A DNA stretch of 64,000 nt from a virus, in the IMG/VR virus record IMGVR_UViG_3300031555_005249. One strand, given 5' to 3'. Positions 22,779-62,267 of this stretch are shown here, in pieces. The stretch's first letter is position 1; every line of letters starts with the position of its first letter. Below the pieces are notes generated by a model, which was not told the DNA's origin, ran no database searches, and worked only from the letters and a program-made list of their open reading frames with translations. Both the position numbers and the translations under genes were made by a program.

Positions 22779-23951
22779 ATGGATACATTACAAACTTTAG
22801 ACGACCTTTTGTCTGATGAGGATTTAGATATTGAAGACTCTTCTGAACAAGAGGAAGAAAATATAGAAGAGAAAATTATCACTGAAGATATTGCGCAAAC
22901 TATAAAATTAGATTATAAGTTAGCTACCTGCGAAGAGCGCTCGGCGTTGGTTAATAAGATTATAGCCCAAACCCCTGCCGCCTCTTTAACAAATCGTTAT
23001 TTAGAAATTTTAGGCGATTATATTATGGGAGGTATCACAAAAGAAGAACGTAAATCGCACCTATACCTTACTGACAATAGAATGATTACTGTTGCAAGGC
23101 GCGAAACGTCTTTTGAAGGTTTGGCAGAAAAATTTGAAAATGGAGAAGATGGTATTTATAATTTAATGACAAATGATAAAAATATTATCTTTGCACCAAA
23201 AAATACAATCACTGAAGAAGATATAGAAAATGTTCCTGGTCTTAAGCAATTGCGCGAGGCTATTATTCAAATTGAAGAGGAGGGGAAACGTGCTATAGGA
23301 AAGCGCAAATACCTTCTCAAAAAGCAACTCATAGAAATGCGTAAAGACCAATATATCTTAAAGAATTCATATTAGGCCCCCATGGTTTGCACTCCTTGTG
23401 CAAAAGGAGCAAATAAAATTGATTTAAGTGAAAAAAAATATGTAGATGAAAATGGAGATCCACAAAGCACAGGTTTAATTTCTTTTTTTAAACCAGAGCA
23501 TATTCAAGCAATTTTAAATAATTATAATGCTTTAAAAATAGAGACTAAAGGTAAATATTCTAGTGACTTTTTTTATTTGATGGAAGATTTTGATAAATTA
23601 TTACATAAGGCATTAGATAATTATCCTATGTATTTTGATATTGTAAAAATGAAAGTAAATGGAAAAACAAATATTGAAATTCAAAAAATGTTAAAAGAAA
23701 AACATAATACAAGTTTTACTGTGTAGTACATTTCCAGTCTATGGTGTAAAAAAATTCCTAAAATTATAGCTGAGAAAGAACAGCATGACTTCTTAATCTG
23801 GTATTATCGTAATGAACAAAAAGGCCCATGGAAGCGTTGCTCTTGTTGTAAAGAATTTAAACCAGCTAATTCGCGCTTTTTCTCTAAGAATCGCACAAGT
23901 AAAGATGGATTTTATAGCATTTGCAAAATGTGCCGCAATAAGAAAAAATAA
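22779..23951 (+). CDS. hypothetical protein with C-terminal zinc ribbon (CSCC...CKMC), TAG-recoded (2 TAG)
   Basis: ORF-track ORFs 22779..23375 and 23382..23726 share a frame and are separated only by TAG. The frame continues past a second TAG (23724) to a TAA at 23949. RBS GAAAGGAG. Confidence 0.55.
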
Positions 23952-24032
23952 GGACAAAAATAATTATATATATACGCTTAATTTTATAAATCAATAAAGG
24001 CAAGCAAAATATAATTAAGAAAGGAGATTCTA

Positions 24033-25244
24033 ATGGCTAAATATCATTGTAATAAATGCAATAAAGAATTAGAAGAAATTAATTTTTATAAGTATAGAGA
24101 TGGTAGTTATGTAGAACTTTGTAAAAAATGTTTGACAATGCATGTTGATGTTTTTGATCCTAGCACTTTTACATGGCTATTAGAAAAATTAGACGTTCCT
24201 TATATCCCTCAAGAGTGGAACGCAGTAATTGAAAATAAAATGGCGAAAAAGCCAGATAAGCCTATTTCACATTCTGCTGTATTTGGATCTTATTTATCGA
24301 AGACTAAATTAAAACAGTGGAAGGATTATTATTGGGCAGATAATGAGCGTATTCAAGAATTATATTATCAACAAAGCGCGCAGGCTTCTGCGGAAAAGGC
24401 TGAACTTGATGCGATGTATCAGGAGTAGTTTGAAGCGGGTCAGATTTCAGAAGCATAGTATAAAACTCTTACCTCCCCAAAGGCGCGCAATGATTCTATG
24501 ATGGCGGCGCTTAGCGCAGGTGGCCCTTATTTAGGAGAAAATAACTCTTTTAATGAGAATGATTTTATTGATGACTCTGCATTACCCGATTTATCTGCGC
24601 AAATGACACAAGAAGAAAAGATTACCTATGCAATGAAATGGGGTAAGTTATATAAGCCTAGTGAATGGATAGAGCTTGAAACAGATTATCAAAAGATGAA
24701 AAAATCATTTGATATTCAAGATGCAGACTCTGAAAATACATTAATTCTTTTATGTAAAACAAATTTAAAAGCTAACCAAGCTATTGACTGTGGCGATATC
24801 GAAGGCTTTTAGAAATTATCAAAAGTATCTGAATCATTGCGTAAATCAGCTAAGTTTACAGCAGCGCAAAATAAAGAACAAAAAGATGATTATGTAGATT
24901 CTATTGGATAGCTTATCGCTATTTGCGAAAAAGATGGTTTTATTCCAAGGTTTGCGACAGATATACCTCAAGATAAAGTTGATATGACTTTACGAGATAT
25001 GAATGAATATGTGCGTAAGCTAGTTACCCAAGATTTAGGCTTTGGACAACAAATTGAAGACTCTTTAAAGAAAATTATGATTCAAAATGAAATGAATCGT
25101 GAGGCGGAAGCGCGCCAGGCAGAAGAGGGTGATGACTTTGACCCTTATGCGCCAACGGAACTCGAGGATGAAGATATTGTTGCGCATTATGACAATTTAC
25201 TAGAGATGAGACAAAAAGATCGAGATTTACTCGAGAAAGAGTGA
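24033..25244 (+). CDS. hypothetical protein with N-terminal zinc ribbon (CNKC...CKKC), TAG-recoded (about 4 TAG)
   Basis: ORFs 24033..24428, 24498..24812 and 24984..25244 share a frame and are separated only by TAG codons. TGA stop at 25242-25244. Position upstream of the large terminase suggests a possible small terminase or packaging accessory, but this is unverified. Confidence 0.5.
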
Positions 25245-25248
25245 AGCT

Positions 25249-26997
25249 ATGGCAGTTCAAGATCTAATTAATCTCGCCCTTTGTGGAGACCAGAAAAAAA
25301 TAGGGTTGTCAAAAGAACGCATTATGAAATAGATACCAATAGTGCGGTAGTATGTTGCCTATTGGCGCGAATATCCTGATATGTTTGTAGAATTCTTATG
25401 CGGTCCAGAGAACAAAGAAAATTTTTAGTTATTTTTTTATTAGCGTTTATTTTTACGCGCAGTTATGCGTCATAGATATGCCTATGCAACGTTTCCTCGT
25501 GCGTATTCAAAAAGTTTTCTCTCAGTACTTGTATTAATGCTAAGATGTATACTATATCCTGGTAGCCATTTATTCGTTACCACAGGGGGTAAAGAGCAAG
25601 CGGCAGGTATTGCTAAAGAAAAATCAGACGAGCTTTGCAAATTAATACCTGGATTAAAGAATGAGCTCGATATGACAAGAGGTAAGACTAAAACAAGTAA
25701 AGATAATATTGAATTAATATTTAAAAATGGTTCAAAATTAGATATTATGGCGGCGCGCCAGTCGTCTCGTGGTAAACGTGCTACCGGTGGTCTAATGGAA
25801 GAGTGTATTCTTATAGACTAGACCTTGCTGAACGAAGTTATTATTCCTACAATGAACGTAGATCGAAGATTATCAGACGGTTCCCGCGTAGAGGAGGAAA
25901 CTGTTAACAAGAGTCAGATTTATGTGACGACCGCAGGATGGAAGAATAGCTTTGCTTATGAAAAACTTATAGAGTTGCTAATTCGTCAAATTATTTATCC
26001 TGATGAAGCAGTTGTTATGGGTGGAACCTGGCGTATTCCAGTTATGGAAAAATTACTAAAAAAGAGCTTTATTGAAGAACTAAAATTAGACGGAACTTAC
26101 AATGATGCTTCCTTTAGTCGAGAATATGAATCAGAATGGAGTGGAGATGCTGAAAATGCCTTCTTCTCTGCTGAAAAATTTGATAAGCATCGTCAATTAT
26201 TACAACCAGAATACGAGTATTCCGGACGTACGTCAAAGAGTGGATATTACGTACTTGGCGTCGATGTGGGTCGTCTTAAGTGTACAACTGAAGTTTGTAT
26301 TTTCAAAGTCACTCCTTAGGCGCAAGGCGCAGCTTTAAAATCTTTAGTCAATCTCTATTCCTATGAAGCCGAGGACTTTGAAGCACAAGCTATTAAAATT
26401 AAAAAGTTATTTTATAAATACAAGGCTCGTATGATCGCAATTGACGCCAATGGACTTGGAGTTGGTTTAATAGACTTCATGACCAAAGGACAAGAGGATC
26501 CAGAAACAGGTGAATATTTGCCGCCTTTTGGAGTTGATGGAGGCACATCTGATGAGTTTAATGAGCAGTATAAGAAAGTTAAAGGCGCCGGAGTGGAAGA
26601 AAATGCAATGTATTTAATTAAAGCTAATGCGCCTATTAATACAGAAGCTCATACTTACGTACAAACTCAATTGGTTGGAGGTAAAATTAAACTTTTAATT
26701 GATGAAACTTAGGCTAAAACAAAATTAATGGCAACAAAGATGGGACAAGAAATGGATGCGTCCAAGCGCGCCGATTATTTAATGCCATTTACACAAACTA
26801 CAATTTTGCGTGAGTAGCTTTTGAATCTTGTAGAAGATAACGAAGGTACAAATATTATTCTTAAGCAATCATCTCGCGGGATTCCAAAAGATAAGTTTTC
26901 TGCTTTTGAATATGGATTATATTATATTAAGCAAGAAGAAGACCGTAGTCGAAAACGTAAAAAGAGAAATATATCAGAGATGATGTTCTTCTCTTGA
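25249..26997 (+). CDS. terL: terminase large subunit, TAG-recoded (about 7 TAG)
   Basis: Single frame from ATG 25249 through ORF-track pieces 25465..25821, 25825..26319 and 26431..26712 to TGA at 26995. Carries ATPase-like FPRAYSKSF / ILID motifs, YVTTAGW coupling motif, and C-terminal RNaseH-like nuclease Asp motifs (YYVLGVDVGR; IAIDANGLGVG). Confidence 0.7.
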
Positions 26998-27070: not shown

Positions 27071-27427
27071 ATGAAAGCAAGTCGAGGCGAAATTAAAATT
27101 TGTGATATTTTAACCGAGGCTGGCGTCTCTTTTACAGAAGAGTATTCATTTTCCGATCTTGTTGGTTATACTAAAACCCCTTTAAGATTTGATTTTGCAG
27201 TATTAGACGATGATGGAGAGGTTGATTTTTTAATTGAATATTAGGGTATTCAACATTATGAACCTAAGTCTAAATTTGGCGGAGTGGCTGGATTGCGCCA
27301 ATAGCAATACTACGATATGTTAAAAAGGGAGTATTGTAAAAAACATAATATTCCCTTGGTTTTAATTCCTTATTATGATGAAGGAAGAATAAACTACGAT
27401 TATATCTTTAAGGCCGCTGGCTATTGA
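27071..27427 (+). CDS. small PD-(D/E)XK / DUF559-like endonuclease (homing-endonuclease-like), 3 TAG
   Basis: MKASRGEIKICDILTEAGVSFTEEYSFSDLVGYTKTPLRFDFAVLDDDGEVDFLIEY[TAG]GIQHYEPKS... resembles the D..(D/E)xK core of Vsr/DUF559-type endonucleases. Inserted between terminase and portal genes. TGA stop. Confidence 0.45.
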
Positions 27428-27469: not shown

Positions 27470-29074
27470 GTGCTTAGTTTGGACGAAAGAATAGAGCAAA
27501 TTCATAAAAAAGGCTTTAACATGAGCACCCCAAGAAGTATCCCAACAGAAGGGAATGTAATTCCTGAATTAGATTATTCACGAATAAAAATAGGAATTAA
27601 GGCGCTTGATGATGCAGTTATAAATCTAGGAGCATATAAAAAACTAAATCCTAATATGACAAAAGAAAGGATTTAGAAGGCAATTGTAACTGGAGATATA
27701 GAATTTATGCGTGAAGCATCTAATTTTTATTTTAAAATAAGTGGTATCTATTCAAGACTATGTAAACACTTAGCTAATTTTTATAGATATGATTGGTTTA
27801 TTACTCCTTATGTTAAAAATGCTACTCCAGAAAAGGTTATTGATGGCTTTAATAAATGGAATGAGTATTTAGATAATTTTGGAGTAAAAGAGAATTTAGG
27901 CGATATAGCTTTGAAAGTATTGCGTAATGGATGCTATTATGGATATATTATAAAAACAGACAATGGCGCTTACCTTTAGGAGCTATTACCAAAGTATTGC
28001 CGCAGCCGCTTTAGTGTCAAAGGGCGCCCGGCGGTTGAATTTAATATGAAATTCTTTAATGACTATTATAGAGATGAAGATTATCGTATTCAAGTGTTGA
28101 AAATGTTCCCTAAGGACTTTCAAAAAGGTTATACTGCTTTTATAAATGGAAAGCTGCCACCTGTTGAGCCGGGGGATACTGCGGGATGGTATCTACTTGA
28201 TCCAGAATGTGCTATTAAGTTTAATATTAATGGCGAAGATTATCCTCCTTTTATTTCAGTTATTCCACATATTATTGATTTGGATGCTGCGCAAGAGTTG
28301 GATAGAAAGAAAATGGCGCAAAAACTTCTAAAAATTATTATTTAGAAAATGCCATTAGACAAAAATGGTGATTTAATATTTGATGTTGAGGAAGCACAAG
28401 AGCTTCACAATAATGCAGTTAAAATGTTGGGCAAGGCTATTGGTATTGATGTATTAACGACTTTTGCAGATGTAGAAGTCGCTGACATGGCTGATAAAAA
28501 TACTGCTACTACTATTGATGAATTAGAAAAGGTTGAAAGAACCGTGTATAATGAGTCAGGTACGGCATAGAATTTATTTAATACTGATGGTAATATTGCT
28601 CTTGAAAAAAGTATTCTTGATGACGAAGCTAATTTATATAATCTTATTCTTTAGTTTCAATCATTTTTGAATTAGCTTATTGAAGATAAGAAAAATAAAA
28701 AATTGTATTATAAAGTTCAAATATTACCAACTACAATTTATAATTATAAAGATATGTCAAAAATTTATAGAGAGCAAAGCGCGCAAGGAGGTTGTTCTAA
28801 GGTTCTTGCAAGTGTTGCACTTGGGCAATCTTATGCTTCAGTAATAGCCACAGCGAAATTTGAAAATGAAATTCTTGATGTATCTAACCTTTTCCAATCG
28901 AAATAGTAGAGGGAAGAGGCAAAAGCAAAAATGAAAACAGATAATAACAAAACTACTAATCCTGCAAATAAACAGGAAGAAGTTGTTGTTGAAAAGAAAA
29001 AAGTCGGGCGCCAAGAGAAGCCTGATGATCAAAAGTCAGAAAAGACAATTAAAAATCGCGAAGCCATGAGCTGA
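27470..29074 (+). CDS. portal protein, TAG-recoded (about 8 TAG incl. tandem TAG-TAG)
   Basis: ORF-track pieces 27470..27676, 27707..27979, 28046..28345, 28349..28570 and 28703..28906 all lie in one frame, separated only by TAG. The frame continues to a TGA at 29072. Size (~530 aa) and position between terminase and prohead protease fit a portal. The start (GTG 27470 versus ATG 27518) is uncertain. Confidence 0.55.
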
Positions 29075-29091: not shown

Positions 29092-30453
29092 ATGCACAAA
29101 TCAGTTGCTACGATAAACTCTCCTGAGTTTATCAATTTAAAACCACTTGATATTAATCCTTTAATGTCTGCATGTGAAATTAAAGTTTTGTATGTTGGCG
29201 AAAATCGTAATAGGTCATATATAACCAAGGATGTTGCAACCGAAATGGCTAAGACATTACGAGGTGCGCCTATTGTAGGTTATTATAAAGAAGACATTGG
29301 AGACTTTAGAGACCACGGACAAGAAGTTATTATTGATAACGATGGGATTAAATTTAATTGCAAAACTGTTCCTTATGGTTTTGTAGCTCCAGATGCAAAG
29401 GTATGGTTTAAAGAATTTGAAGATACTAATGACTTTGGAGAAACTATTTTGAGAGAATATCTTATGACTACAGGATATTTGTGGACTGGCCAATTTGAGG
29501 AATGTAAATCTGCTGTTGAGGGCGATGGCAAGCCGCACTCGATGGAATTAGATGAAGCAACCGTTAAAGGACATTGGGAAACAAATACCAAAGGCATGGA
29601 TTTCTTTATTATAAATGACGCAATTTTTTCAAAACTTTGCATTTTGGGCGACGATGTTGAACCTTGTTTTGAAGGCTCAAGCATAAAAGCACCAAATGTT
29701 AGTGCGTCTTTTACGAAAGTAGATGATACTTTCAGACAAACATTATTTACTATGATGCAGGATTTAAAGACTGCATTAGGAGGAGGTCAGCAAATGATAG
29801 ACGCTATCGTCGATAATGCTGTAGTTGAAGAGCCTATTGTAGCGCCTGCGGCAGAACCTGCTGCGGAACCTATTATCGAGCCTGAAACTCCAGTAGAACC
29901 TTCTTTTGCTGCATCACAAGAGCCAGCTGTTGATACACCTGCAGTGGTTGAAGAGCCTGCGGCAGAACCTGTCGTAAATCCTGAAGACCCTGCTCCTGTA
30001 GATCCTGAACCGGCGCCCGCGCCTTCAATAGAAGAGCAGTTTACTGCACTTCAGCAGGAACTTGAGGAAGAAAGAACTGCACACTCTGCGCTTGCAGAAC
30101 AGTATGCGCTACTTCAATCTCAGTATAATACCCTTTCAGCTGAGCACCTAGAACTTGTTGAATTTAAAAGACAAAGTGACGATGCAAAGAAAGACGAAAT
30201 GATTGGAAAATTCTATATGCTTAGCGATGAAGATAAGGCAGAGGTCTTATTTAATAAAGCTAATTACACTGTAGAAGAAATTGAAGAAAAACTTTCTGTA
30301 ATTTGTTTCAGAAAAAAGGTCAATTTTGAATTAGAGGATAACTCTAAAAATAATAATAAAGTAGAGCAACCACCTGTGACATTTAATATGTCCAACCCTG
30401 GTGCTTCAATGCCTGCTTGGTTACAAGCAGTTGAAAATGCAAAAAATAAATAA
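29092..30453 (+). CDS. prohead protease (HK97-family) fused to scaffold domain
   Basis: N-terminal region is HK97-type prohead-protease-like. The C-terminal half is Pro/Ala/Glu-rich followed by a coiled coil (EEQFTALQQELEEERTAHSALAEQYALLQSQYNTLSAEHLELVEF). No TAG across 453 codons. RBS GAGGAGAGGAG. Confidence 0.6.
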   Translation: MHKSVATINSPEFINLKPLDINPLMSACEIKVLYVGENRNRSYITKDVATEMAKTLRGAPIVGYYKEDIGDFRDHGQEVIIDNDGIKFNCKTVPYGFVAPDAKVWFKEFEDTNDFGETILREYLMTTGYLWTGQFEECKSAVEGDGKPHSMELDEATVKGHWETNTKGMDFFIINDAIFSKLCILGDDVEPCFEGSSIKAPNVSASFTKVDDTFRQTLFTMMQDLKTALGGGQQMIDAIVDNAVVEEPIVAPAAEPAAEPIIEPETPVEPSFAASQEPAVDTPAVVEEPAAEPVVNPEDPAPVDPEPAPAPSIEEQFTALQQELEEERTAHSALAEQYALLQSQYNTLSAEHLELVEFKRQSDDAKKDEMIGKFYMLSDEDKAEVLFNKANYTVEEIEEKLSVICFRKKVNFELEDNSKNNNKVEQPPVTFNMSNPGASMPAWLQAVENAKNK

Positions 30454-31016: not shown

Positions 31017-32069
31017 ATGGCATTAGATAGAAATAGTTTATTTACATTAGGTCACCGCGTTGCTGACGCTAATCCTTCTGCTCCCGTTGCTTATTCTTTT
31101 GAGGATAAGAGTTATAGCTATGCAGATTTAAATAATGCTTTCCGTGCAGAGCTTAAGGATCTTATTGGTACATATGCTCTTTGGAGAGAGAACCATAATA
31201 CAGTTTATACTCTTATGGAGGAAATTATCACTGATAAGCTTCCTGCTAAAGTAATGCAACAATATGGCGCATTTGCTGAAGTTAAGACATATCGTCAAGG
31301 CGAAAAGCCTGTATTCGTTCAGAGAATTACCGAGGCTTCCAAGAGACGTGCAAAGCAGTTTATTGCAATGCCTGCAGGTCTTGCTGGTCGTTATGAGGTC
31401 TTTAAGCTTGATGGACGTAGCTACGAAGTAAAGACTTCTGCAATGGGTGCAGCATGTCAGATCGCTATTGAGGAATTCCTTGATGGTAGAATTGATATGG
31501 CTACAGTTCTTGATATTGTTATGGAAGGTATGGATGATAAGATCTATGCTGAAATCGCAAATGTTCTTATCGCTGCTGTTGAGAATATTCAAGATGCTAA
31601 CAAGGTTCTTGCTGATAGCTTCGTTGAGGCTGAAATGGACGCTCTTCTTGCAGTTGCGGACACTTATGGAAACGGTAGATCGACGATTTATTGTACATTT
31701 GAGTTTGCTTCTCAAATGCTTCCTGACAATGCTTGGGATCAAGGAAGAATGTCTGATAGTATGAAGGATGAGTACTGGAGAAATGGTCGTCTTGCAAACT
31801 ACAAGAACCATCAAGTCATCGTTCTTCGTCAATCTTTTGTTGATGAAACAAATACTGAAAAGGTTATCGATCCTTCATATGCTTGGATTATTCCTGGCGG
31901 CGCTGAGAAGCCAATCAAGATCGCTTTCGAAGGTGATACAATGATTAAAGAAGAAGATAATGAAGACTGGTCTAAGAGCATCCACTTCTATAAGAAGGTT
32001 GGCGTTGCGGCTATGATCAACAATGATATCTGTGTTTATAAGAACAGATCTCTTAAGAAAACCAGATAA
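31017..32069 (+). CDS. major capsid protein (HK97-fold candidate)
   Basis: 350-codon ORF directly after protease/scaffold and decoration genes. No TAG. RBS AAGGGAGGGA. A terminator hairpin follows. Confidence 0.6.
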   Translation: MALDRNSLFTLGHRVADANPSAPVAYSFEDKSYSYADLNNAFRAELKDLIGTYALWRENHNTVYTLMEEIITDKLPAKVMQQYGAFAEVKTYRQGEKPVFVQRITEASKRRAKQFIAMPAGLAGRYEVFKLDGRSYEVKTSAMGAACQIAIEEFLDGRIDMATVLDIVMEGMDDKIYAEIANVLIAAVENIQDANKVLADSFVEAEMDALLAVADTYGNGRSTIYCTFEFASQMLPDNAWDQGRMSDSMKDEYWRNGRLANYKNHQVIVLRQSFVDETNTEKVIDPSYAWIIPGGAEKPIKIAFEGDTMIKEEDNEDWSKSIHFYKKVGVAAMINNDICVYKNRSLKKTR

Positions 32070-32121: not shown

Positions 32122-32155
32122 TAAATTCTAAATGGAGATAAAAGGAGATATAATT

Positions 32156-32734
32156 ATGTTAAATAATACTGATAAAATCAGAGTAGAAAATCGCGCAAAT
32201 GCGATTGTTTGTTACAGAGTACCAGAATCTAAGGTTATTAGACGTTTTGAGCCAAAAGAAACAAAAGAAATTCCTATGGGCGAATTGCGTCAAGCAGTAC
32301 AAATCCCAGGTACTTATAATCTAATAGCTAGTGATTTGATTCTGCATAGTAAAGAAGCTGTTGAAGAACTAATTCCAGATGCAGAACCTGAGTATTTTTA
32401 TGATAAAAATGATGTTCTTTTTCTTCTTGAAAAAGGCACTTTAGATCAACTTAAAGATGCATTAGATTTTGCGCCTGAGGGTGTTATTGATCTAATTAAA
32501 GAAGAGGCTGTTCTTACAGAACTTAACGACATGAAGAAAAGAACTGCAATTTTTGAAGCTACTAATTTTAATGTAACTAAAGCAATTGAGCTTAGACATG
32601 AAGCGCAAAAGGAAACTAAAGTTGAAACTAAGACCAGACGTGCGGCGCCAATCGGTGAAGCAGAGACTGAAGAAACAACTCAAGCGCCTGTGCGCAGAAC
32701 GGCTATGCCCAATAAATACACTATTGTAAAGTAA
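32156..32734 (+). CDS. hypothetical structural protein (head-tail region)
   Basis: Internal ATG (MLNNTDKIRVEN...) with RBS AAAAGGAGATA. No TAG, TAA stop. Confidence 0.5.
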   Translation: MLNNTDKIRVENRANAIVCYRVPESKVIRRFEPKETKEIPMGELRQAVQIPGTYNLIASDLILHSKEAVEELIPDAEPEYFYDKNDVLFLLEKGTLDQLKDALDFAPEGVIDLIKEEAVLTELNDMKKRTAIFEATNFNVTKAIELRHEAQKETKVETKTRRAAPIGEAETEETTQAPVRRTAMPNKYTIVK

Positions 32735-32752: not shown

Positions 32753-33229
32753 ATGCCAGTAACATCAACACCTTTTTCCGTAGTGCATGATAGATTTTTA
32801 TCGAAAATAACTGACGATATGTATATGGAAATTACTCCAGAAGAAACCGCCGCAGCATTGAATGAGCTTCTTGATAGCGCAATACCGTGGTTTGAATTTC
32901 CTAGGGTTAATTTAAACGATAAAACAAATGAAGTATTTAATGCTTCATTAAGTGATGAAGAAATTAATATTCTTGCTATATATATGATAGTCGAATGGAT
33001 TGGATATCAATTGGCTAATATTGAATTGATTCGTATGAAGTATAGTGGAAGTGATTTTAAATTTACTTCTCAAGCTAATCATATGCACAAGCTTAAAGAT
33101 ATGCAAAAGGAATATGAAAGAAAAGGATTCCATTTGCAAAGACTTTATAAACGGAGAAAAGCAGATAGTAAAGGTATTATGAAATCTACTTTTGGAAGTA
33201 TTATGGAATCTTCTTTTAAGGAGGACTAA
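32753..33229 (+). CDS. hypothetical head-tail connector-region protein
   Basis: ORF-track ORF, RBS AAGGAGG, no TAG. Confidence 0.5.
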   Translation: MPVTSTPFSVVHDRFLSKITDDMYMEITPEETAAALNELLDSAIPWFEFPRVNLNDKTNEVFNASLSDEEINILAIYMIVEWIGYQLANIELIRMKYSGSDFKFTSQANHMHKLKDMQKEYERKGFHLQRLYKRRKADSKGIMKSTFGSIMESSFKED

Positions 33230-33231
33230 AT

Positions 33232-33543
33232 ATGCTTTTAAAGTATGATTATAATATAGGTAAAGAAGCAATAAAAATTAGTTTTACTCGATTAACTAAT
33301 TAGATATATAAGCTTCTCCCATTGCGTGAAGAAGGGAGCGATTGGCGCAAACCTTTAATCACAATTATGGAAGAGCTTTAGGGTATGAATAGGTTATTTC
33401 TCGATCAATAGCCTAATCTATATAAATTACTTTGTAAATTAGAAGGACTATTTACTCTTGATTCTGAAGAAGATTTTATGACTTATCGTGGAATCATTTT
33501 TGAGTGTCTGAGTATTTTAAGTGAATTACAACAATGTCTTTAA
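33232..33543 (+). CDS. hypothetical protein, TAG-recoded (3 TAG)
   Basis: Own translation MLLKYDYNIGKEAIKISFTRLTN[TAG]IYKLLPLREEGSDWRKPLITIMEEL[TAG]GMNRLFLD[TAG]QPNLYKLLCKLEGLFTLDSEEDFMTYRGIIFECLSILSELQQCL then TAA. Confidence 0.4.
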
Positions 33544-33596
33544 ATAATTTAAAAACAAGATTACAATATCATGGCGGCGCCAAGTAGATTGATCGA

Positions 33597-51900: not shown

Positions 51901-53880
51901 GCTTCTTGGTAGTTATTAAATAAAAATGTATATAGCTTTGAATGGAAAGAGCCAAAACAAAATAAAATTGAATGCACTGGTTAGATAAATAATACAGCTG
52001 GTTTAAGCGGCGGTCTGATTTTAAAAGTAGTAGTCATATATAAGAATTATGATTTCTCTGGAATGACAAAGCCTACGTATGAAGTAACAGCAGATGGTAG
52101 TATGTCAGCAAAGTTAGGCTATATTGGTGGTTGGAAAATTGATGAAAATAGTATTAGTGTTGAGAATGAGAGTTTCTCCCTTATATCAGACGATAGTAGT
52201 ATGGGAATATCACTTTTAGGTGGAGGAAACTCACCGCACCGTATAGTTGTAGGCGGAAGCGGTGGAGGTGGCAGCGGTGATGGTGATAATAGCGGTGGCG
52301 ATGATAATGGTGGTAGTGGAGATTCTACTACTATAACAGTTTTAGTTTCGAAAGAGAAAAGCATAACTCTGTCAGCTTAGAAGACTGAAGCAAAACAATT
52401 TTTACATGAAGGTGTAGATAGTACGTTTATATTAAACTCAATAGAAGGAGAAGGGGGTTCTTATATTACTTCTATTGAATATAATCCTGATACTAAGTAG
52501 ATTACTGTCTATTATAGTAATCCAACCTCTTCAGATGCTTAGATAACTATTGGATATACTGTTCATACTTATTAGACTATACCAAATACAACTACGAGTA
52601 GTGCTAATTTAACTGCAAGTAGTAGTACTAGCTCAAGCAACTATACTTTTTAGTTATTAGCAGACGGTAGCCTGTATGCGAGCGCCGTAGATATTAAAGG
52701 TACTATTACTACAGAAAATGGATATATTGGTGGTTGGAATATCGGTCCAAATGGATTATACAGTCCCAAATTAGCATCTGGCTCAATATTTAGTTTAAAT
52801 AGTACTGGCATTGGTAGTTATGATTATCCTTTATTATAGTTACTTAGCTCTTTTAATATTCCTTCAGATATTAAAGATAGCATAAAATTAGAAGATTTGG
52901 GAGTACTTATAGAAAAGGAAGAATATATGTTAAAAGCATCAGCAAGATTTTCGTTCAATGGTCTTTCGGTAGACGAGTTTAATGCGCAGTATGGTTACAA
53001 TTTTACAGTTAGTATACGTAATGAAGGAGATTTTTAGTATATAACATTTACATATGGAGCGGAACTAAATGTTAAAACAGTAAAAATTGACATATTTGTT
53101 GATAATGTTTTTTCTACTTATTCTTTTGCCGTACTTCCTCGACATTTATATTATTCTACTGGAAATTTATCTGGTGACATCTACTATGGTGACTGGATTA
53201 TATTCGATGGCTTATATTTTCAAAACGGTTCTGACAATGGCGCGACTCCCTTTGGTACAAGTTTAAAATATATTGAAAGTGGTTATCCAACCATATTTTC
53301 TACAGCTACTGCTTTAAAAGAAGATCCTAACAGTGGAAATATAATAATATAGCCAGGGGAATATTTTACAGTTATTCTTAATCAAACAGTTTATTCTTCA
53401 TGGTCATGGACGCTTATTAAAAGGAAAGCTGATGAAAAGACAGTTTTTTTACTTACAGGTTCAAATGGCGATCCTCTTGCCTTTTTAGACTATAATGGTA
53501 ATTTATTTGCTCAAACTGTAAATTCAACAGGTAGTGACTAGAGAATAAAAAATTCGATTCAAGCTATTCCTTTTTAGTACGAAGAAGCTTATGATAATTT
53601 TGAACCTGTTATTTATAAATATAATGATGGAACCTCAGACAGATATCATACTGGTTTTATTGCACAACCAATGGCACAGGCGATCGAAGATGCAGGCTTA
53701 ACATTGCAAGATTTTGCTGCAGTATGCAAGCCAGCCTATGACGGTGGTACTTGGGGTATTCGTTATGGAGAAATTGTTTCGCTGAATACATGGCAAATTC
53801 AAAAAGCTAAAAAACGTATCACGGCACTTGAACAAGAAGTTTAGAATTTAAAAGATATAATTACTTCATTGGTTAAATAA
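48916..53880 (+). CDS. tail fibre / receptor-binding protein with C-terminal S74-type intramolecular chaperone domain, TAG-recoded; may comprise more than one gene
   Basis: ORF-track pieces 48916..49500, 50341..50712, 51415..51624 and 52063..52380 are all in frame 1. The interval I translated (49501-50340) contains only TAG. C-terminus ...YHTGFIAQPMAQAIEDAGLTLQDFAAVCKPAYDGGTWGIRYGEIVSLNTWQIQKAKKRITALEQEV matches the auto-cleaving chaperone (peptidase S74) of tail fibres. Gly-rich linker GGSGGGGSGDGDNSGGDDNGGSGD. TAA at 53878. Confidence 0.55.
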
Positions 53881-53914
53881 CCAATGAAGTAATTATCTGA
53901 AAGGAGAATTAATA

Positions 53915-54202
53915 ATGGCTTTACAAAAACCAATAATTTAGCAGAATGGAGTAGTAACGCACTATCATCGTATTAGTAATTTGCATTTAAGCTCATAGGA
54001 AGAAAAACAGCATATTTTTTCTGTAGTTGTTGATTCCTATCTCTCAGAAGAGTCGCGTCGAGCAGATATTCATGATATATATGCAAGTGCTAGTTTTATT
54101 ATTTAGGCTGAATGGTATGAAGTTGACCATTATGGCGCCTTAATTCTCATTTATCAAAAGTTAAAAGAACTTAAATTCTTTGAAGGCGCTACAGATTGCT
54201 GA
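53915..54202 (+). CDS. small hypothetical protein, 3 TAG
   Basis: RBS AAAGGAGAA. MALQKPII[TAG]QNGVVTHYHRISNLHLSS[TAG]EEKQHIFSVVVDSYLSEESRRADIHDIYASASFII[TAG]AEWYEVDHYGALILIYQKLKELKFFEGATDC then TGA. Confidence 0.35.
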
Positions 54203-54317
54203 TTAAAATTCTTATCAAAATGATTTAATCGAATTATTTTAGTTTTTATATATTTATAGACAAAGAGAGAAATAATTTATTTCTCTCTTTGAATTTTAAG
54301 ATAGGAGGTTATTGAAT

Positions 54318-54650
54318 ATGGTTATTCAACAAAATTGTAATTTTATTGAAAATGCCAGTGCTCCTATTGTATCAAAAACATTTTCTAATGCGGCAAGCGA
54401 CACCTTAACGCTGCAAATAAGTGGCGCTAATGGTAAGTATTATCTTGAAGGACGCAATAATTCTATGGGTGACTGGTTTGCGCTCGCAGGTATTAGCTTA
54501 AGTGACTTCTCTGCCCACCGAGGAGTGTTTACAAAAGCTGGTATCTATGAGATTGGCGTAGTCGGTATTCGTGAAGTACGCGTACGAATAGAATCAGTAG
54601 AAGGAAATGTTTCTATTTTTGGACAAATGATAAGCACGGAGGAGACGTAA
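54318..54650 (+). CDS. hypothetical structural protein
   Basis: ATG 54318 with RBS TAGGAGG (the ORF track starts at the alternative TTG 54312). No TAG. Confidence 0.5.
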   Translation: MVIQQNCNFIENASAPIVSKTFSNAASDTLTLQISGANGKYYLEGRNNSMGDWFALAGISLSDFSAHRGVFTKAGIYEIGVVGIREVRVRIESVEGNVSIFGQMISTEET

Positions 54651-54651
54651 G

Positions 54652-55539
54652 ATGGCGATAGATATTATTGCAAGAGGTCTTGCGACTTCGCTTATTGGTT
54701 CAGATGGACGAATTTCTTCAGATAAACTACCTGTGATGGGCGCAGTCCCAGAAGGCGCGACATTTTATCCAGTTGGCGCCATTACGGACCCTAAGCAGCT
54801 TGAAGGCAAAACATCTGAAGAGATTCTTTTAATGATGCTTTACGGCGTAGTAAGTCCCACCCTTACGAATCCTAGTTTAGCAGTTGAAGTTACCTCAGGA
54901 TTAACAGCTGTTGCTGGAAAACCCGTTACTATTAATGGAACTCTAGTTTTTGATCGAGGCGCAATATCGCCTGCCTATGGTACCTCAGGGTATCGCGCGG
55001 GCGCCCCATTATCATATACAATAAATGATATTGAAGTCCCTTCTGCTACTTTCACCATTGATTTAATACCTATTGCAGGTGAAAATATAATAAACTGCAC
55101 TGTTTATTATGCAGAAGGAGAACAGCCATTAAACAGTATTGGATAGCCTTTTGATTTACCTTTATCTGCAGGTTATTTAACGACAAGCTTTACTATTGTC
55201 GGTACCCATCAAATATATACTGCTGATGGTAAAGAGTTAGATTTTACTTGGTTTGAAGATGAAAATGGCGCCGGATACGAAGTTGAATTATTAATAGAAA
55301 CAGGAAATACAAAGCAATCTTTTGCAGTTAATGCTAATTTAAAAGTTATTGGTATTAAACAATTTGAGACAATGACTCAAACATGGCAATGGATTGGAGG
55401 TAGTCCTGAAGCATCATTAGCTACTTTTGATACATCTTTAATTGAAGGAGACTCCTTAGATTAGTCTGATGACTATATGGTATATACTCATAATGGTTCT
55501 AAGACTGGTAATAGAGAATTGCGTATTTACGTAGAGTGA
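54652..55539 (+). CDS. hypothetical structural protein, 2 TAG
   Basis: ORF 54652..55146 continues in frame across TAG codons to a TGA at 55537. Confidence 0.45.
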
Positions 55540-55557: not shown

Positions 55558-56424
55558 ATGGCAAGAGAAAAAGGTACATTTCTAGTCTCAGCTAATTATG
55601 AGCCGCAAAAAGCTGCCCCATTCGATGCGCGGGCTTTGGTTGAAACTAAAGCAGATTTATTTGCGGCAAATACATGGGCTATAAATAACGAATTGTGGAT
55701 TTATAAAGGTATGATAGTTGCAGTTGCAACTGACATTGAGCCTAAAAACAATGGTATTTATATGCTCTTAGACGATGTAAATTATTTTAATGAAGATGCT
55801 TGGCTTAAAATGTCTGACTCAACCATGGACGGCGAGTCTGCTGGTGAGGTTCTAGGTCAATTAAATTCTTATAAAGAGACTAACGATGCGGTAGTTGCTG
55901 CTATCAATGGTAAGATTGGAACTCCTGGTGAGGGACAAAATGATGAAGGCGATACGCTTTATAGCTTAATTGCAGAAGCGCAAACTCAGGCTAATAAAGG
56001 TGTTGCCGATGCGAAGACAGCGAATGACGCAATTGCAGCGTTAACCAATGGCGCAATTGCTACTAATACATCTGACATTAGCGCAATTAAAGGTAGACTT
56101 ACTACTCTTGAGACAGAAGTTCTTCCTATTATCAATAAGCATAGTGATATTCTTGCAGGCATTGGCGGCGATGGTGAAAAAGCAACAGTTAAGGCATATG
56201 TTGATGATGCTATTGCAGCAATTCCTACTTATGAACTTCCTGCAGCTACTGCTGAAACTCTTGGTGGAGTTAAGTCTGCGGCTGATGTTGACGGGAAAGC
56301 AGTTACAAATGCAGTTTATGTTGATGCAACTAGCAATGTTGGTAGTGTAAAAACTATAAGCACAGATATATTAGTCCAAGGGGTCGAAGAGCTTATTCTT
56401 AATGGCGGTAGCGCCAAGGCTTAA
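55558..56424 (+). CDS. fibre-like structural protein (Ala-rich coiled segments)
   Basis: 288 codons, no TAG, TAA stop. RBS AAGGGGTATAGATAAGATATG. Confidence 0.5.
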   Translation: MAREKGTFLVSANYEPQKAAPFDARALVETKADLFAANTWAINNELWIYKGMIVAVATDIEPKNNGIYMLLDDVNYFNEDAWLKMSDSTMDGESAGEVLGQLNSYKETNDAVVAAINGKIGTPGEGQNDEGDTLYSLIAEAQTQANKGVADAKTANDAIAALTNGAIATNTSDISAIKGRLTTLETEVLPIINKHSDILAGIGGDGEKATVKAYVDDAIAAIPTYELPAATAETLGGVKSAADVDGKAVTNAVYVDATSNVGSVKTISTDILVQGVEELILNGGSAKA

Positions 56425-56518: not shown

Positions 56519-58033
56519 ATGGCGAAACAAATTAATACTCGTATCATGCTTAAGCATGATAGCTTAACTAATTGGAATGAATCCTCTATAGTTCTTAAGC
56601 CAGGTGAAGTTGGTATAGCATATGTAGATGTTACAACCACTGATGCCAAGGGCAATATTATTCATGTTCCTACTGCTCTTTTAAAAGTAGGTGAAAATGT
56701 AGAGAATTCTACCAAAACTTTTAAAGAGCTTCCCTTTATGTCTGCTATTGCAGCTGATGTTTATGCATGGGCAAAGAAGAGCGGAATTGAAGTAGTAGAC
56801 GAAGGAGAGGGAGAGGTTCTTTCTGATGTAACTTGGGAGAATGACAAACTCGTTCTTCATAGATTAGATGTTGTAACTCCAGCAGAACTTACAACGGCTC
56901 TTGGAAGTTACTATACAAAAGATGAAATTGATGGCAAGATTGAGGAAATCAGTCAGTCTATTTCGGACCTTGACGTATCTGCTCTTGAAGGTAGAGTTGA
57001 TGCAGTAGAGACTGCTGTCGAAACAACACTCCCTGGTCAAATCAGCGCAGTAGATGCAAAATTTGCAAGCTATACAACAACAGCTGCGCAACAAGCAATT
57101 GATGCGGAACAGGATCGTAGACTTGGCGTTATCGAGGGTGATTATGTAAAATCTGCTGATATTGCCAACTTTGAAACAAAAGAGAATGTTCAGAAGGTTG
57201 CAAACGATCTTGCAGGATATCAAACTTCTAATGACGCAGCTCTTGCAGCAGTAAAAGCAACAGCTGATGCGGCTGCAGTTAAGACTGAGGTTGAGACAGC
57301 TCTTGCTGATAGATATACTAAAACCGAGGCAGATGCTGCTTTTGATGCAAAAGGCAGTGCTGATCAAGCATTAACCGATGCTAAGGACTATACTGATACC
57401 CAAATTCAAGCTATCATGGGTGGAGAAGTCGATGAAGCTTATAACTCTTTCTTAGAGATTCAGAATTTCTTAAAGGCTGATGAAACTGCTACTGCTCAGC
57501 TTGTTGAAAAGGTAAATGCGAATGAGGCGGCCGCAGCTGCAGCTCAGGCAAAGGCTGATGCTGCACTTCCTACAGCTACCGCGGAGGCAGATTACTTAAA
57601 GAAAACAGATGCATCTACCATTTACGAGCCTATTGGTGCACAAGCTGCTGCAGAGGCTACTGCTAAAGGTTATACCGATACAGAGATTGCAAAGCTTAGC
57701 AATGTTTATGATGCTAAGGGTGCTGCTGCTGATGCACAGGCGGCTGCTATCGCAGATGCTGCGGGCAAGTATGAGACAAAAGGTACTGCTCAAGGTATTG
57801 TTGACGCTTTAAACCTTGCTCAAACTTATGAGCCTATTGGCGCAGAAGGTAGAGCTATTGCTGCGGCAAAGACTGAAACTGAGAACCAGATTGCAGCTCT
57901 TGGTATTGAAGATTATGCAAAGAGCGCAGATGTGGCTACTACATATCGCGCAAAGGCAGATAAGATTACTTCTGATGATCTCTCTGACGAAGTTTTCATC
58001 TTTAATTGCGGAACAGCATCTACTGTTATATAA
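56519..58033 (+). CDS. tail/head fibre protein with conserved N-terminal fibre domain (IMLKHDSLTNWNESSIVLKPGEVGIAYVD...) and long Ala-rich coiled coil
   Basis: 504 codons, no TAG, RBS AAAGGAG. A terminator follows. Confidence 0.55.
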   Translation: MAKQINTRIMLKHDSLTNWNESSIVLKPGEVGIAYVDVTTTDAKGNIIHVPTALLKVGENVENSTKTFKELPFMSAIAADVYAWAKKSGIEVVDEGEGEVLSDVTWENDKLVLHRLDVVTPAELTTALGSYYTKDEIDGKIEEISQSISDLDVSALEGRVDAVETAVETTLPGQISAVDAKFASYTTTAAQQAIDAEQDRRLGVIEGDYVKSADIANFETKENVQKVANDLAGYQTSNDAALAAVKATADAAAVKTEVETALADRYTKTEADAAFDAKGSADQALTDAKDYTDTQIQAIMGGEVDEAYNSFLEIQNFLKADETATAQLVEKVNANEAAAAAAQAKADAALPTATAEADYLKKTDASTIYEPIGAQAAAEATAKGYTDTEIAKLSNVYDAKGAAADAQAAAIADAAGKYETKGTAQGIVDALNLAQTYEPIGAEGRAIAAAKTETENQIAALGIEDYAKSADVATTYRAKADKITSDDLSDEVFIFNCGTASTVI

Positions 58034-58053
58034 TAAATTAAACAGATATTTGA

Positions 58054-58090: not shown

Positions 58091-58161
58091 TTTTAAGTTA
58101 ATCTCATTTAATGAATTTTAATATATAATTAGAGAATTACTGGGAAAGGAGGAATTCCTAC

Positions 58162-58668: not shown

Positions 58669-58698
58669 GATATATGGAGATAAAAGGAGAAAAAGATT

Positions 58699-60054
58699 AT
58701 GGCAACACAAACACTTTATCCACCTATTATTGATACTGCAAAAGGAACAGTTTTCACTAATTAGGGTATAACTGTTTATTTTAATTTAATAAACAAAATA
58801 ATCTCTAACAAAGATAAAATTTTAATAAAACAAGAAGACATTGAAACTGGCAACATAGATTGGCAACTTTTAACCAGTTCTAATAATAGTATTAAAGCTA
58901 ATTATATAGATGGTTTTAAAGATATACTTATTTATCTATATTTAATAGACACTTCTGTTTCTACTACTCCTGTAGAAGGATGGAAGGATTGGTTAAAAAA
59001 TACTAATAATAAATCTTTACACTCAGAAGCGAGTACTGGAGTGAGATTTAATTATTTGACTCAAATTCCTAGTTTAGATATAAGTTGGACGAATATTGGT
59101 CGTAATAATACAATATCTATAACAGGACAAGATAGTTTATCTGAGGAAGATTTTATTACTTATTTTGCATTTACTTGTGCGGGAAAAACTTAGGAATTTT
59201 ATTCTTCTCTACCTACAGATTTTAAGTTTATTTTATCATATAATTTAGTTGGAACCGCTATTAATTATCAATATACTTATAAAACTTTTAAAGGATATGT
59301 ATATTCTGGATCTGGCTTAAGAGAATGGACGGCATCAAACGAATCTTTGGCGCCCATTACTTATTCTTTTGAAAAAGAATATAGTATTAAAATATCTAAT
59401 CCTAATGGTTATGAGATATATAAGAAAATAGACGAACAAGAACACAGTTTAGGCACTGATACTGATATAACCGATTATCTTTTAGAAGGTTCTCATGATG
59501 TTTATTACTATAATAACCCTGATGCCTCTGTTATAAATGAACCTCATATCGTGATAAATAAAGTCTTTGATGATATGTTTTTATTGTCTAAAAATAAAAC
59601 ATTACGTATTAGATTTAATCCAGATATATCTAGCTATAAACGCAACGTAGCAGATGTAATCACTGCCACATTAGGGGGCGCCTATCCATTTGTAAGACGC
59701 AACGGCGCACAAAAATATCGCACTTTTACTATTAATGGTATGATTTCCTACGAAGGCGAAGATTTAACTGATGATAGATCTTTACTTAATGAAATTACAT
59801 TATTATCCGATGATTCATATGATAATCATGTAATTAATGAACGTAAATATCGCGATAAGGTTTTAGACTTTCTTTATACACCAGATATTAAATTGTTTAA
59901 ATCAACTCAAGAGGGTAATATTTTTGTTTATTTATCTAACATTTCATTGACCCCTGAGAAGACGCTTTGGCGCTCAATTTACTCCTTTTCTTGCACTGCG
60001 ACAGAAGTTGCTCCTTAGTATGACATGTTTAAGTTGGAGTCAATAGGAGGTTGA
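58699..60054 (+). CDS. siphovirus tail component (Dit / Sipho_tail-like), 3 TAG
   Basis: ATG 58699 (RBS AAAAGGAGAAAAAG) is in frame with ORF-track ORF 59347..60018. Only TAG interrupts the frame, and the TGA stop is at 60052. Confidence 0.5.
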
Positions 60055-60056
60055 TT

Positions 60057-62267
60057 ATGGCAAAATATAGCTACTTATCTAATCCTTAGATATTAAGATA
60101 TGTTGATAATTTAATAGTAAAAGAACAATATGTTAAAATTATTTTATTCAACATGAATGACGAACCTCTTGAATCTATTGAAGGGTTTGCCACTACCGGT
60201 AGTATTTCAGTAAATGGTTAGTCTTCAATGCGTAGAACTGGCTCTTTAACAATGTTAACTTATACGGATAAAGATATTTGTAAAAATCCTAATTTTATAA
60301 TGAATAAAGTAACTGATATTAATAATAAATTATCAATGAATAAAAAGATTGAAATTGAAGTTGGTATTAAAAATACTGGCGCATAGTATTTAGAATATTC
60401 TATCTTTTGGTTCCCTGTTGGAGTTTATGGAATTACAGATGCTTCTGTGAGTTCAAATAATTCGGGTATTCAAATATCTTTAAAATTTAATGATAAAATG
60501 GCATTTTTGAATGGCTCTTTAGGAGGTACTTTTTCAGTTAAGACAACGCATTCTCCTATTTATGTAGAGGGCGGTGATCCTGAGCCTGTTTTAAATCGTA
60601 AATTAATTGAATCTCTGGTACATGATGCAGGTGGTATTCCTAAAGAAAAAATTATTATTGAAGATGTTCCCTTTTAGATTAAAAATGCAATTCGATGGAC
60701 ATCAAATTATCCAGCTTATTTAAAGCATATAGATGGTAACAAATATGAGTTAACATTAGGATAGGCGCCAAATGATGGAGCTATTGATGAATATATTTTT
60801 GGAGATGCTATTGGATATCAAATGACTAATTTTACTTATGGCGCAGGTGATAGTCAAGCAGAGTTAACTTCTAATGCAGGTGAAACTATTGAATCTGTCT
60901 TAAACAAGATAAAAAATACTATGGGTAATTATGAGTTTTTCTTTGATTTAGATGGGAACTTTAGATTTAGAGAAATTAAAAATTATCTTAATGAAGGTAG
61001 TGCTATTAACAATCTTGTAGATGCTATTAATGATAAATATTTTATTAATTAGTCGCGAGGTAAATCAATCTACTCTTTTGATAATACTAATTGTACTGTT
61101 TCCTATTCTAATAATCCACGTTATAGTGAAATTAAAAATGATATTATTGTATGGGGGTAGACTGCTAAAAATAAAACCCCAATTTGTTATCATTTAATTA
61201 TTGACACACCGCCTTAGTCTGGTAACGAATACTGGGTTGTGTTTTAGATGGATGCAGATGGTACATAGAGAGCTAAAGCAGTATGGGATGTGTAGCCTGA
61301 GAATGATAAACTTAGTGCAAAAAAAGTAAGGACTTAGGACTGGCGCCAAGAACTCTATATGTAGTATATTAGAGATGGAGTTCAAACTCCTTTGGCTAAA
61401 GAGTTAATTTAGAATTTGCCTTTGATTTATAATGTTCAATATGGAATAGAAGCCGATAATATTAAGCCTGGTGATAACGGCTTCTTTTATGATAATTAGC
61501 CTGATGCAACACCTTATTTTATAGATATGATAGACCCTAATCTTTTTGGCGGAGATAATATTATACCAATTTTAGCCAAAAAAACAGCAACGGTAATTAT
61601 ACCTGCCACATAGAGCGGAACGGAAAAAATTCCATATGAAGGGATGGATAGTATACTTAAATTACATTCTATTGAAGGCGAAGAAACAGCTTGCATTACT
61701 TCTATTGAACATGATGCTAATTATATTATTATAAAATATAACAACACAACCGATACATTACTTTCTATAATTATTAATTATTCTGTTGTTACTGGTTATT
61801 AGACTATACAATCAAATACAATAGGTGTTACAGGTTTAGAATCAATAAAATAGTTTGGAGTTTAGACTATAGGCCGCCGACAAAAAGTTATTAATGATTC
61901 AAAAGTAAACTGTGTCTTTGCGCCAGTGCTAAAAGATATTTTATATGTTGAAAAAGCAGAAGATGCATCTGCTAATCAAAAGTATATTATTGCAGATACT
62001 TCGATTCAATCAGCTATTGGAATAGGCGTAGCAACTAATTCAGCATATGATTTAGTACGCAGTGCATTACATTAGTACACTAGTTACAATAATAGTATTA
62101 GTTTATCTTGTATGCCTATTTATCATTTAGAGCCAAATACTCGTATTACAGTAAATGATGATGATAGTGATATTCATGGAGACTATATTATAAATAGTTT
62201 AACAGTTCCACTTACAGCGAATGGAACAATGAGTATAAGCGCAAGTCGTGCGATTGAAAGAATATAA
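60057..62267 (+). CDS. tail-associated (Tal / prophage-tail endopeptidase-like) protein, about 25 TAG
   Basis: ATG 60057 is in frame with ORF-track ORFs 60447..60677 and 60822..61052 and continues to a TAA at 62265. I translated the whole 737-codon frame and found only TAG interruptions. Confidence 0.5.

Follow-up and report, generated by a model that had tools for sequence, protein, structure and literature searches.

How does a phage whose terminase, portal, tape-measure and fibre genes are all interrupted by the amber codon TAG obtain complete proteins from them? This question is raised by the IMG/VR virus record IMGVR_UViG_3300031555_005249, of which we examined a stretch of 64,000 nucleotides (nt; 35% GC), referred to below as the window. 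An original prediction, made from the letters alone, had proposed that TAG is read as sense throughout the block of morphogenesis genes, similar to the amber recoding known from gut phages, and every test that we ran supports this likeness. Our analysis makes it very probable that the window comes from a code-15 phage in which TAG is read as glutamine (Gln, Q), that TAA and TGA are its sole terminators, and that the window covers about half of a genome of ~135 kilobases (kb); a switch of the code in the course of infection is what we propose.

TAG is a sense codon in the window

When open reading frames (ORFs) are called from stop to stop with TAA and TGA alone as stops, the segment 22779-63711 (+) resolves into 26 closely packed genes, with three to four more small genes in the apparent gaps between them. 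Across 13,151 codons these 26 genes hold 195 in-frame TAGs and not one TAA or TGA, in keeping with the earlier claim that the fragments are split by TAG only, and the other two frames of the same genes hold 1211 TAA, 915 TGA and 521 TAG. The off-frame rate of TAA and TGA is about 0.08 per codon, which would by chance put about 255 of them into the frame of the tape measure alone. The 26 late genes are terminated by TAA (19) or TGA (7) and never by TAG, which also ends none of the 21 confident early genes (0/21). Reassignment of TGA, which the prediction had excluded as we do here, or of TAA is rejected, since both are the terminators and both are absent in frame. With TAG as sense the coding density of 22779-63711 is 93.5%, compared to 41-52% with genetic code 11, and the full-length terminase, portal, tape measure of 3142 amino acids (aa) and S74 fibre are restored along with their domain and PHROG matches. 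Code 11, in other words, mis-annotates more than half of the late region as fragments, and the correct code flag restores the proteins.

The coordinates first given for five of these genes proved right (22779-23951, 25249-26997, the portal end at 29074, 39381-48809 and 48916-53880), and the numbers of fragments given for them, such as two parts for the first and seven or more for the tape measure, were too low, their in-frame TAGs in fact numbering 2, 8, 8, 82 and 32. The motifs NMGVNID-TAG-LNAMLATVISVTRQAP and KEY-TAG-LRMGL, singled out at the time, are both present, and conserved domains indeed run unbroken across TAG: PF10145 and, twice, PG_binding_1 in the tape measure, and Peptidase_S74 in the fibre. 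PF10145 is matched over its full model length at residues 194-399 of the tape measure, across several TAGs, in a gene whose longest TAG-free stretch is 173 codons. Moreover, wherever eight contigs from several JGI/ENA samples, each assembled independently, overlap the window, they match it at 99.98-100% identity, a gene with 20 TAGs included, and because of this identity the TAGs are not assembly errors, the possibility that the prediction had itself raised against its reading. In the ENA annotation of these contigs TAG is already read through, as in products of 736 and 276 aa. We find no strong read-through-context bias in the base 3' of TAG, and TAG positions are evenly spread within genes, with no clustering.

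TAG thus serves as sense in 22 or more genes of the window. The word 'throughout' holds for 18 of the 26 late genes and fails for the remaining eight, which have no TAG; TAG is also sense outside 22779-63711, namely at 1910-2740 (-), 8392-8790, 9601-10314 and 21899-22558 (-).

Glutamine as the reading of TAG, and the recoded lineage

Relatives of the window phage were collected through its capsid protein from IMG/VR and other contigs (labelled L001 and so on), and they are of two kinds, recoded (L001-L004, L007 and L031) and standard-code without in-frame TAG (L005 and L006, both with a capsid identity of 56% to the window). Aligned with the standard-code L006, the TAGs of the window face Q at 17 of 36 sites (47%), compared to 41% for CAA and 39% for CAG, and in the terminase 6 of 8 TAGs align with Gln. 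With substitution frequencies taken from the same window-L006 alignments, the maximum-likelihood meaning of TAG is Q, at a log-likelihood of -75.5 against -103.4 for the next best residue (28 units). In the recoded relatives, TAGs of the window are aligned mostly to TAG, CAA and CAG, and the reverse holds too; these alignments show TAG to behave in evolution as a synonym of CAA and CAG. Because TAG is aligned with Q at the rate of CAA and CAG, and because the three codons interchange in relatives, TAG is, to judge from the alignments, a glutamine codon, and the code is genetic code 15. Of the earlier wording, 'Gln (or another residue)', the alignment with L006 and the likelihoods pin down the former. 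If TAG is Gln, the tape-measure peptide across its TAG should read NMGVNID-Q-LNAMLATVISVTR; code 15 has been proven by proteomics in other phages, all of them crAss-like (Peters et al. 2022, PMC9523058).

Two other explanations of the TAGs have to be set against this evidence. We consider it very improbable that TAG encodes another amino acid, for example Glu, Lys, Tyr or pyrrolysine. ARAGORN does label CUA anticodons as 'Pyl', and some TAG sites are aligned with E, K, N or Y, but Q stands at 47% of the sites, the rate of true Gln codons, and is separated from the next residue by the 28-unit gap; TAG exchanges most often with CAA although the two are two mutations apart; and no pyl genes were seen. 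That the TAGs are true stops in a decaying, non-functional phage remnant, or else sequencing or assembly artefacts, we regard as close to negligible. Such a remnant would look fragmented under code 11, as these genes do, but it would hardly be free of TAA and TGA across 13,151 in-frame codons, and reading frame, domains and the equivalence of TAG, CAA and CAG are kept in relatives at 50-85% identity. The sequence is also identical across many independent assemblies, and genome-length contigs of the relatives are common.

About half of a ~135 kb genome of siphovirus type is covered by the window, which represents a new, fairly distant member of the phAss-1/Enterococcus EF1-like group of ~135 kb siphoviruses. 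Among GenBank phages, its capsid protein is 46% identical to that of phAss-1 and 37% to those of Enterococcus phages EF1, EF5, H1 and VRE9, with more distant matches in 113-141 kb phages of Clostridioides, Mammaliicoccus, Brevibacillus and Geobacillus; the relatives are Firmicutes siphoviruses of ~130-140 kb, such as phAss-1, Enterococcus phage EF1, Brevibacillus Sundance and Geobacillus E3. phAss-1 comes from the human gut, measures 135,976 base pairs (bp) and is placed by NCBI in the 'Caudoviricetes code 15 clade', and a capsid protein identical to that of the window is recorded on a contig of 135,217 bp. The window phage carries the signature of the phAss-1 group, that is capsid homology, the 3142-aa tape measure, a ~135 kb genome and a tRNA array that adjoins the window. 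A megablast search with 12 kb of the window against GenBank phages returned no close genome and no match to phAss-1, and together with the capsid identity of 46% this places the phage outside the genus Phassvirus as strictly defined (80-86% nucleotide identity among members).

The phAss-1 group was described by Babkin et al. (2023, PMC10607447), who report TAG-to-Gln recoding in 41 ORFs of phAss-1, including terminase, portal, tape measure and fibre, a tape measure of 3149 aa, 36 tRNAs including a tRNA-Sup(CTA), a probable Clostridia host, and recoded and unrecoded members side by side within the group. TAG-to-Gln recoding in this phage lineage has therefore been published since 2023, and novelty is limited to the new member. 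The window phage shares with the group the recoding of those four genes, the genome of ~135 kb, a tape measure of ~3150 aa, the large minus-strand tRNA array, a homologous capsid, the mix of recoded and unrecoded members and a probable Clostridia host. It differs in that phAss-1 has its own canonical Gln-type tRNA-Sup(CUA) in the array, whereas none was found in the window phage or in the whole array of a recoded relative, and in that its fibre has an S74 chaperone where pectate-lyase domains are described for phAss-1 (PMC10607447). The standard-code relatives L005 and L006 and the EF1-like phages (134-142 kb) have the same order of genes from the sigma-like gene to the tail genes, at 34-60% protein identity, but hold no in-frame TAG, and the TAG Gln sites of the window are CAA or CAG there.

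Likeness to the code-15 crAss-like, Lak and other recoded gut phages extends to TAG as Gln, early genes compatible with the standard code, recoded late and structural genes, low GC, the existence of close standard-code relatives and a suppressor tRNA that is often undetectable. However, those phages belong to Crassvirales or are Lak phages of Bacteroidota, and the window belongs to a siphovirus-type phage of Firmicutes, in which the capsid, scaffold-like and probable tube genes are free of TAG and the homing endonucleases are recoded, points that we did not find stated in the papers examined. Code-15 recoding in gut phages was reportedly described already by Ivanova in 2014. The description of the genome as 'TP901-like' did not hold up: the PF10145 domain of the tape measure alone bears the TP901 name, its 'TP901-family' core and a siphovirus-like gene order are what is shared with phage TP901-1, and TP901-1 uses the standard code and has a tape measure about one third as long. 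The genome of TP901-1 is ~38 kb, compared to ~135 kb here. Neither TP901-1 nor any lactococcal phage is found among the capsid-protein matches, so that in spite of PF10145 the phage is not of the TP901-1-like (P335-type) kind, its capsid relatives being the 113-142 kb Firmicutes phages.

This gut and rumen phage family is represented by more than 7000 capsid clusters in the protein collection, and having recoded and standard-code relatives within one well-sampled, abundant family provides a natural series for the origin of a code change. Relatives are binned with metagenome-assembled genomes (MAGs) of Eubacteriales, Lachnospiraceae and Clostridia from the rumen and other herbivore guts, a few of them clearly mis-binned, and these bins give a faint hint of a Clostridia host. 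Among contigs of GTDB genomes, L051-L059 are relatives at whole-genome length (105-140 kb) that lie inside MAGs, mostly of Clostridia, Lachnospiraceae and Eubacteriales; bins of Methanobrevibacter, Endomicrobiaceae and Succinivibrio look like binning errors rather than hosts.

Uneven use of TAG, the proposed switch and its decoder

Amber recoding is an established phenomenon, and the parts worth following in this phage are the graded usage of TAG and its decoder. Across the late block TAG makes up 34% of the Gln-type codons, but eight of the 26 genes lack it altogether while holding 75 CAA and CAG codons between them (P ~3e-14 if the 34% share were even). The eight are the scaffold-like and capsid genes, two small head genes, the probable tube gene, two Ala-rich fibrous genes and one small gene, and the orthologues of capsid, scaffold-like and tube genes are TAG-free in recoded relatives as well (for the tube, L001 and L004). 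At the other end, TAG accounts for 44-65% of the Gln codons (1.9-2.7 per 100 codons) in the tape measure, the fibre and the genes for a 736-aa baseplate-region protein and a 586-aa protein. TAG share falls as the GC content of the gene rises (rho = -0.56, p = 0.003). Outside the block, some 21 small minus-strand genes at 500-22400 use TAG neither as sense nor as stop, and on the right flank of the same phage a DNA polymerase III alpha of 1324 aa has 0 TAG among 55 Gln codons, an intein-bearing NrdD has 2 TAGs and an HNH-like gene another 2. Recoding is thus biased toward late structural genes, with early genes readable in the standard code, the exceptions being the homing endonucleases and a lipase.

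These differences suggest expression-dependent codon choice, in which the TAG-free structural proteins would be needed in high copy and the TAG-dense tape measure, fibre, baseplate-region and 586-aa proteins in low copy. C-to-T drift probably turned CAG into TAG in weakly expressed genes rich in AT, and TAG would have been purged from highly expressed ones. The avoidance of TAG in capsid, scaffold-like and probable tube genes, combined with its heavy use in the tape measure, constrains the efficiency and cost of suppression. All three genes of homing-endonuclease type in the window (two GIY-YIG, one HNH-like) carry TAG, even beside TAG-free neighbours, and such mobile elements seem to be adapted to the code of the phage. 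The HNH-like gene beside the intein-bearing NrdD (L045 5299-9037) also has in-frame TAG.

Matches to an extended -10 motif, TATGNTATAAT, number 23 over the full length of the window, where 6.9 would be expected; 18 copies lie in the early region 850-20161, nearly all on the minus strand, and the late block has none of comparable quality. This pattern fits early transcription by a host sigma factor and late transcription by a phage sigma factor. In wrong-frame ORF translations the motif appears as a recurring peptide, 'YDIIII'. We propose that the host uses the standard code, and that the early genes would be written so as to be readable under either code. Infection would then switch the cell to TAG as Gln through a suppressor tRNA and/or loss of RF1 activity, the switch factor being encoded in the remaining half of the genome or being non-canonical in kind, and the late sigma factor (2 TAGs), like the packaging and tail proteins, could be completed only after the switch. 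Such a regulatory model for recoded phages is described by Borges et al. (preprint, 10.1101/2021.08.26.457843), who find that suppressor tRNAs are often undetectable. The 82 TAGs of the tape measure need a read-through of about 99% or better per codon (0.99^82 = 0.44; 0.95^82 = 0.015), and such a number in one essential gene therefore argues for near-full reassignment rather than leaky read-through. We infer that decoding them implies an effective neutralisation of RF1 late in infection.

To find the decoder, the window and all loci were scanned for tRNAs with ARAGORN (default and relaxed) and Rfam (gathering and E-value thresholds). A tRNA array begins ~265 nt left of the window (L018 3246-6240, L029 and L042, all of the same phage) and breaks most assemblies; the 17 tRNAs recovered from it (Arg, Leu, Trp, Ile, Glu, Tyr, Ser, Ala, Val and Asp) include no CUA anticodon, nor is there one among all 31 tRNAs in the array of the recoded relative L031. 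That array, on an ENA contig of 129,947 bp, also contains a ROOL RNA (L031 18367-18974; RF03087, 171 bits) and a tRNA with an 8-nt anticodon loop ('ttgg'; L031 7675-7752). The one candidate within the window is a non-canonical tRNA gene at 16510-16584 (-), which scores 38.9 bits as Rfam tRNA, is missed by Rfam default filters and is called by ARAGORN only at the relaxed threshold. Its anticodon loop is of 6 nt, CACUAU (or of 8 nt, ACACUAUU), and contains CUA. CCA is encoded in the gene, an extended -10 box of its own precedes it by 14 nt, and five other assemblies carry it without a difference; no homologues were found in GenBank phages, IMG/VR, JGI metagenome contigs or GTDB genomes.

It is possible, and in our judgement unlikely, that this gene is the amber suppressor, with a non-canonical loop of 6 nt, or of 8 nt with three bases 5' of CUA, and transcribed early from its own promoter. 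It is the sole tRNA-like gene with CUA in the anticodon loop in all the sequence examined, its acceptor, D and T arms are good, and the encoded CCA, the extended -10 box and the identity in five independent contigs count in favour of this role. Loops of 8 nt can decode triplets, as in the yeast mitochondrial tRNA-Thr(UAG). However, the gene lacks U33 and a purine at position 37, has G1-C72 and A73 instead of the Gln-type U1-A72 and G73 of the canonical suppressor in phAss-1, resembles no tRNA-Gln, and is missing at the syntenic position in L009 and L010, the recoded relatives nearest to the phage, and these must decode TAG otherwise; a CUA would moreover fall in a 6-8 nt loop by chance in ~6-9% of cases. 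Non-canonical suppressors missed by standard tools are all the same expected by Borges et al. (10.1101/2021.08.26.457843). Quite unlikely, in our estimate, is decoding with no dedicated suppressor, in which a near-cognate tRNA-Gln reads TAG once a phage factor inhibits or outcompetes RF1. This would agree with the failure to find a canonical suppressor in the window, its flanks and the full array of a relative, with its absence from two of three other recoded genomes of the phAss-1 group (PMC10607447), and with the presence of a suppressor tRNA in only 40% of TAG-recoded phages (10.1101/2021.08.26.457843). Against it, an efficiency of ~99% per codon over 82 TAGs would be hard for near-cognate decoding, ~50 kb of the genome lies outside the sequence examined, and phAss-1 carries a canonical suppressor. 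A bolder idea, which we also rate as improbable, is that this sub-lineage would reassign TAG near-completely without a canonical tRNA(CUA), through the 16510-16584 (-) tRNA or an RF1-directed mechanism, and TAG density would act as a dial inverse to the copy need in the virion.

Several points weigh against a code-15 phage with an infection-time switch, the account that we prefer. The window, ~6 kb to its left, ~15 kb to its right and the 31-tRNA array of L031 yielded no canonical tRNA(CUA) and no RF2 or GlnRS gene. The sequence examined leaves ~50 kb of the ~135 kb genome outside, where a canonical suppressor may be located, and the mechanism of the switch is one that we infer. Recoding in this phage is known at the nucleotide level only, and the host, hence the host code, is pointed to only by the Clostridia MAG bins of relatives. 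The argument from copy number uses gene roles partly assigned by position only. Lastly, for three short ORFs, 1602-1913 (-), 17649-17951 (-) and 7604-8293 (+), code 11 sets the end at a TAG where code 15 adds another 19-35 codons, with stop and sense indistinguishable. As the canonical suppressor was not found, the phage offers a concrete test case for how most recoded phages switch code.

A second tRNA-like gene, at 13241-13312 (-), has an 8-nt anticodon loop, UUUCGUUU, and is not an amber decoder. Its counterparts are L009 11322-11391 and L010 11294-11363, and to judge from five pairs changed on both sides among the three sequences its cloverleaf is kept by compensatory changes in relatives. 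The anticodon arm is wholly different in each, with loops of UUUCGUUU in the window, GUAGGAA in L009 and GUAGUAA in L010, which ARAGORN labels as '????', Pro(AGG) and Thr(AGU), respectively.

Gene map and neighbouring features

The first gene of the late block, 22779-23951 (+), had been taken for a morphogenesis gene, but its product is a late regulator that resembles a sigma factor (phrog_5767 'sigma factor', E=1e-43; 2 TAGs) and has a zinc-ribbon/HNH-like tail at its C-terminus. It is followed, on the same strand as all genes of the block, by a conserved phage protein with no assigned function (24033-25244; phrog_3314; 4 TAGs), the terminase large subunit (25249-26997; phrog_2, E=5e-18; 8 TAGs), a small HNH/homing-endonuclease-like gene between terminase and portal (27071-27427; phrog_559 and phrog_9084; 2 TAGs) and the portal protein (27521-29074, with an alternative start at 27470; phrog_2739, E=5e-63; 8 TAGs). 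The PHROG families 15503 (245 positions) and 24618 (230 positions), of 'unknown function', each match just one half of the terminase, one the N-terminal and the other the C-terminal half, and appear to have been assembled from pieces that code 11 makes of recoded genes. In L006 (2992-5662) and in L003/L004 an additional ORF of ~0.9 kb, which could be an intron or a homing-endonuclease insertion, divides the gene for the large terminase in two; the gene in the window is intact.

The head genes comprise a scaffold-like protein (29092-30453; phrog_3313 and a weak scaffolding match; 0 TAG among 16 Gln codons), the capsid gene (31017-32069; 0 TAG among 11 Gln codons) and two small head-associated genes without TAG (32132-32734 and 32753-33229). 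By its AlphaFold2 model, the product of 31017-32069 is an HK97-fold major capsid protein: the model has a predicted local distance difference test (pLDDT) score of 71.5, all its top Foldseek matches in the PDB are HK97-fold capsids or encapsulins at a probability of ~1.0, and there is a weak match to the NCBIfam family capsid_Caudo_2. Searches of Pfam with the first ten late proteins gave no match, so that PHROGs and, for the capsid, structure prediction were needed, and sequence searches of the PDB with the capsid and tube proteins gave none either. Four head-tail joining or structural genes come next, at 33220-33540 (3 TAGs), 33534-34523 (3), 34541-35131 (2) and 35082-35879 (5).

The tail genes begin with a probable major tail (tube) protein at 35915-36838 (phrog_2729 'virion structural protein'; 0 TAG), its tube role being assigned from gene position only. 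Downstream of it lie the gene for the 586-aa protein, which has no family match (36916-38676; 15 TAGs), a small gene in the chaperone position upstream of the tape measure (38758-39285; 1 TAG), the tape measure itself (39381-48809; PF10145 and PG_binding_1 twice; 3142 aa, 82 TAGs) and a fibre or tail-spike protein of 1654 aa with a C-terminal S74 intramolecular chaperone (48916-53880; PF13884, E=5.5e-9; 32 TAGs). Three small genes (53888-54199, 3 TAGs; 54300-54647, none; 54652-55539, 2 TAGs) precede the two Ala-rich fibrous proteins (55558-56424 and 56519-58033; 0 TAG among 25 Gln codons). The segment 58162-62267 then encodes a membrane-anchored small protein (2 TAGs), a 451-aa protein (3 TAGs) and the 736-aa baseplate-region protein, whose 20 TAGs make up 65% of its Gln-type codons and whose product is called intact in ENA. 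The block closes with three small genes, 62483-62968 (3 TAGs), 62977-63225 (1) and 63262-63711 (0).

In the early region, the gene at 1910-2740 (-) encodes a GIY-YIG and NUMOD3 homing endonuclease, in which PF01541 and PF07460 span TAGs (6 TAGs; 276 aa in ENA), and a small gene at 8392-8790 (+) has a GIY-YIG domain (PF01541; 2 TAGs). The ORF at 7604-8398 (+) encodes a helix-turn-helix-like protein with a long poly-Asn tract, which has a TAG end under code 11 and gains 35 codons under code 15. An ORF at 9601-10314 (+) has 6 in-frame TAGs and no family match. Divergent from the late block lies a class-3 lipase-like gene at 21899-22558 (-), with PF01764 at residues 36-174 spanning a TAG (2 TAGs in all). 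Among the early genes, 18385-18765 (-) belongs to the nucleoside 2-deoxyribosyltransferase family (PF05014, E=2e-19), and may have a connection with the salvage of nucleotides or with DNA modification. On the right flank, in the same phage, a minus-strand module of replication and nucleotide metabolism (L045 246-4220) comprises DNA polymerase III alpha, guanylate kinase, glutaredoxin, NrdD with an intein, NrdG and dUTPase.

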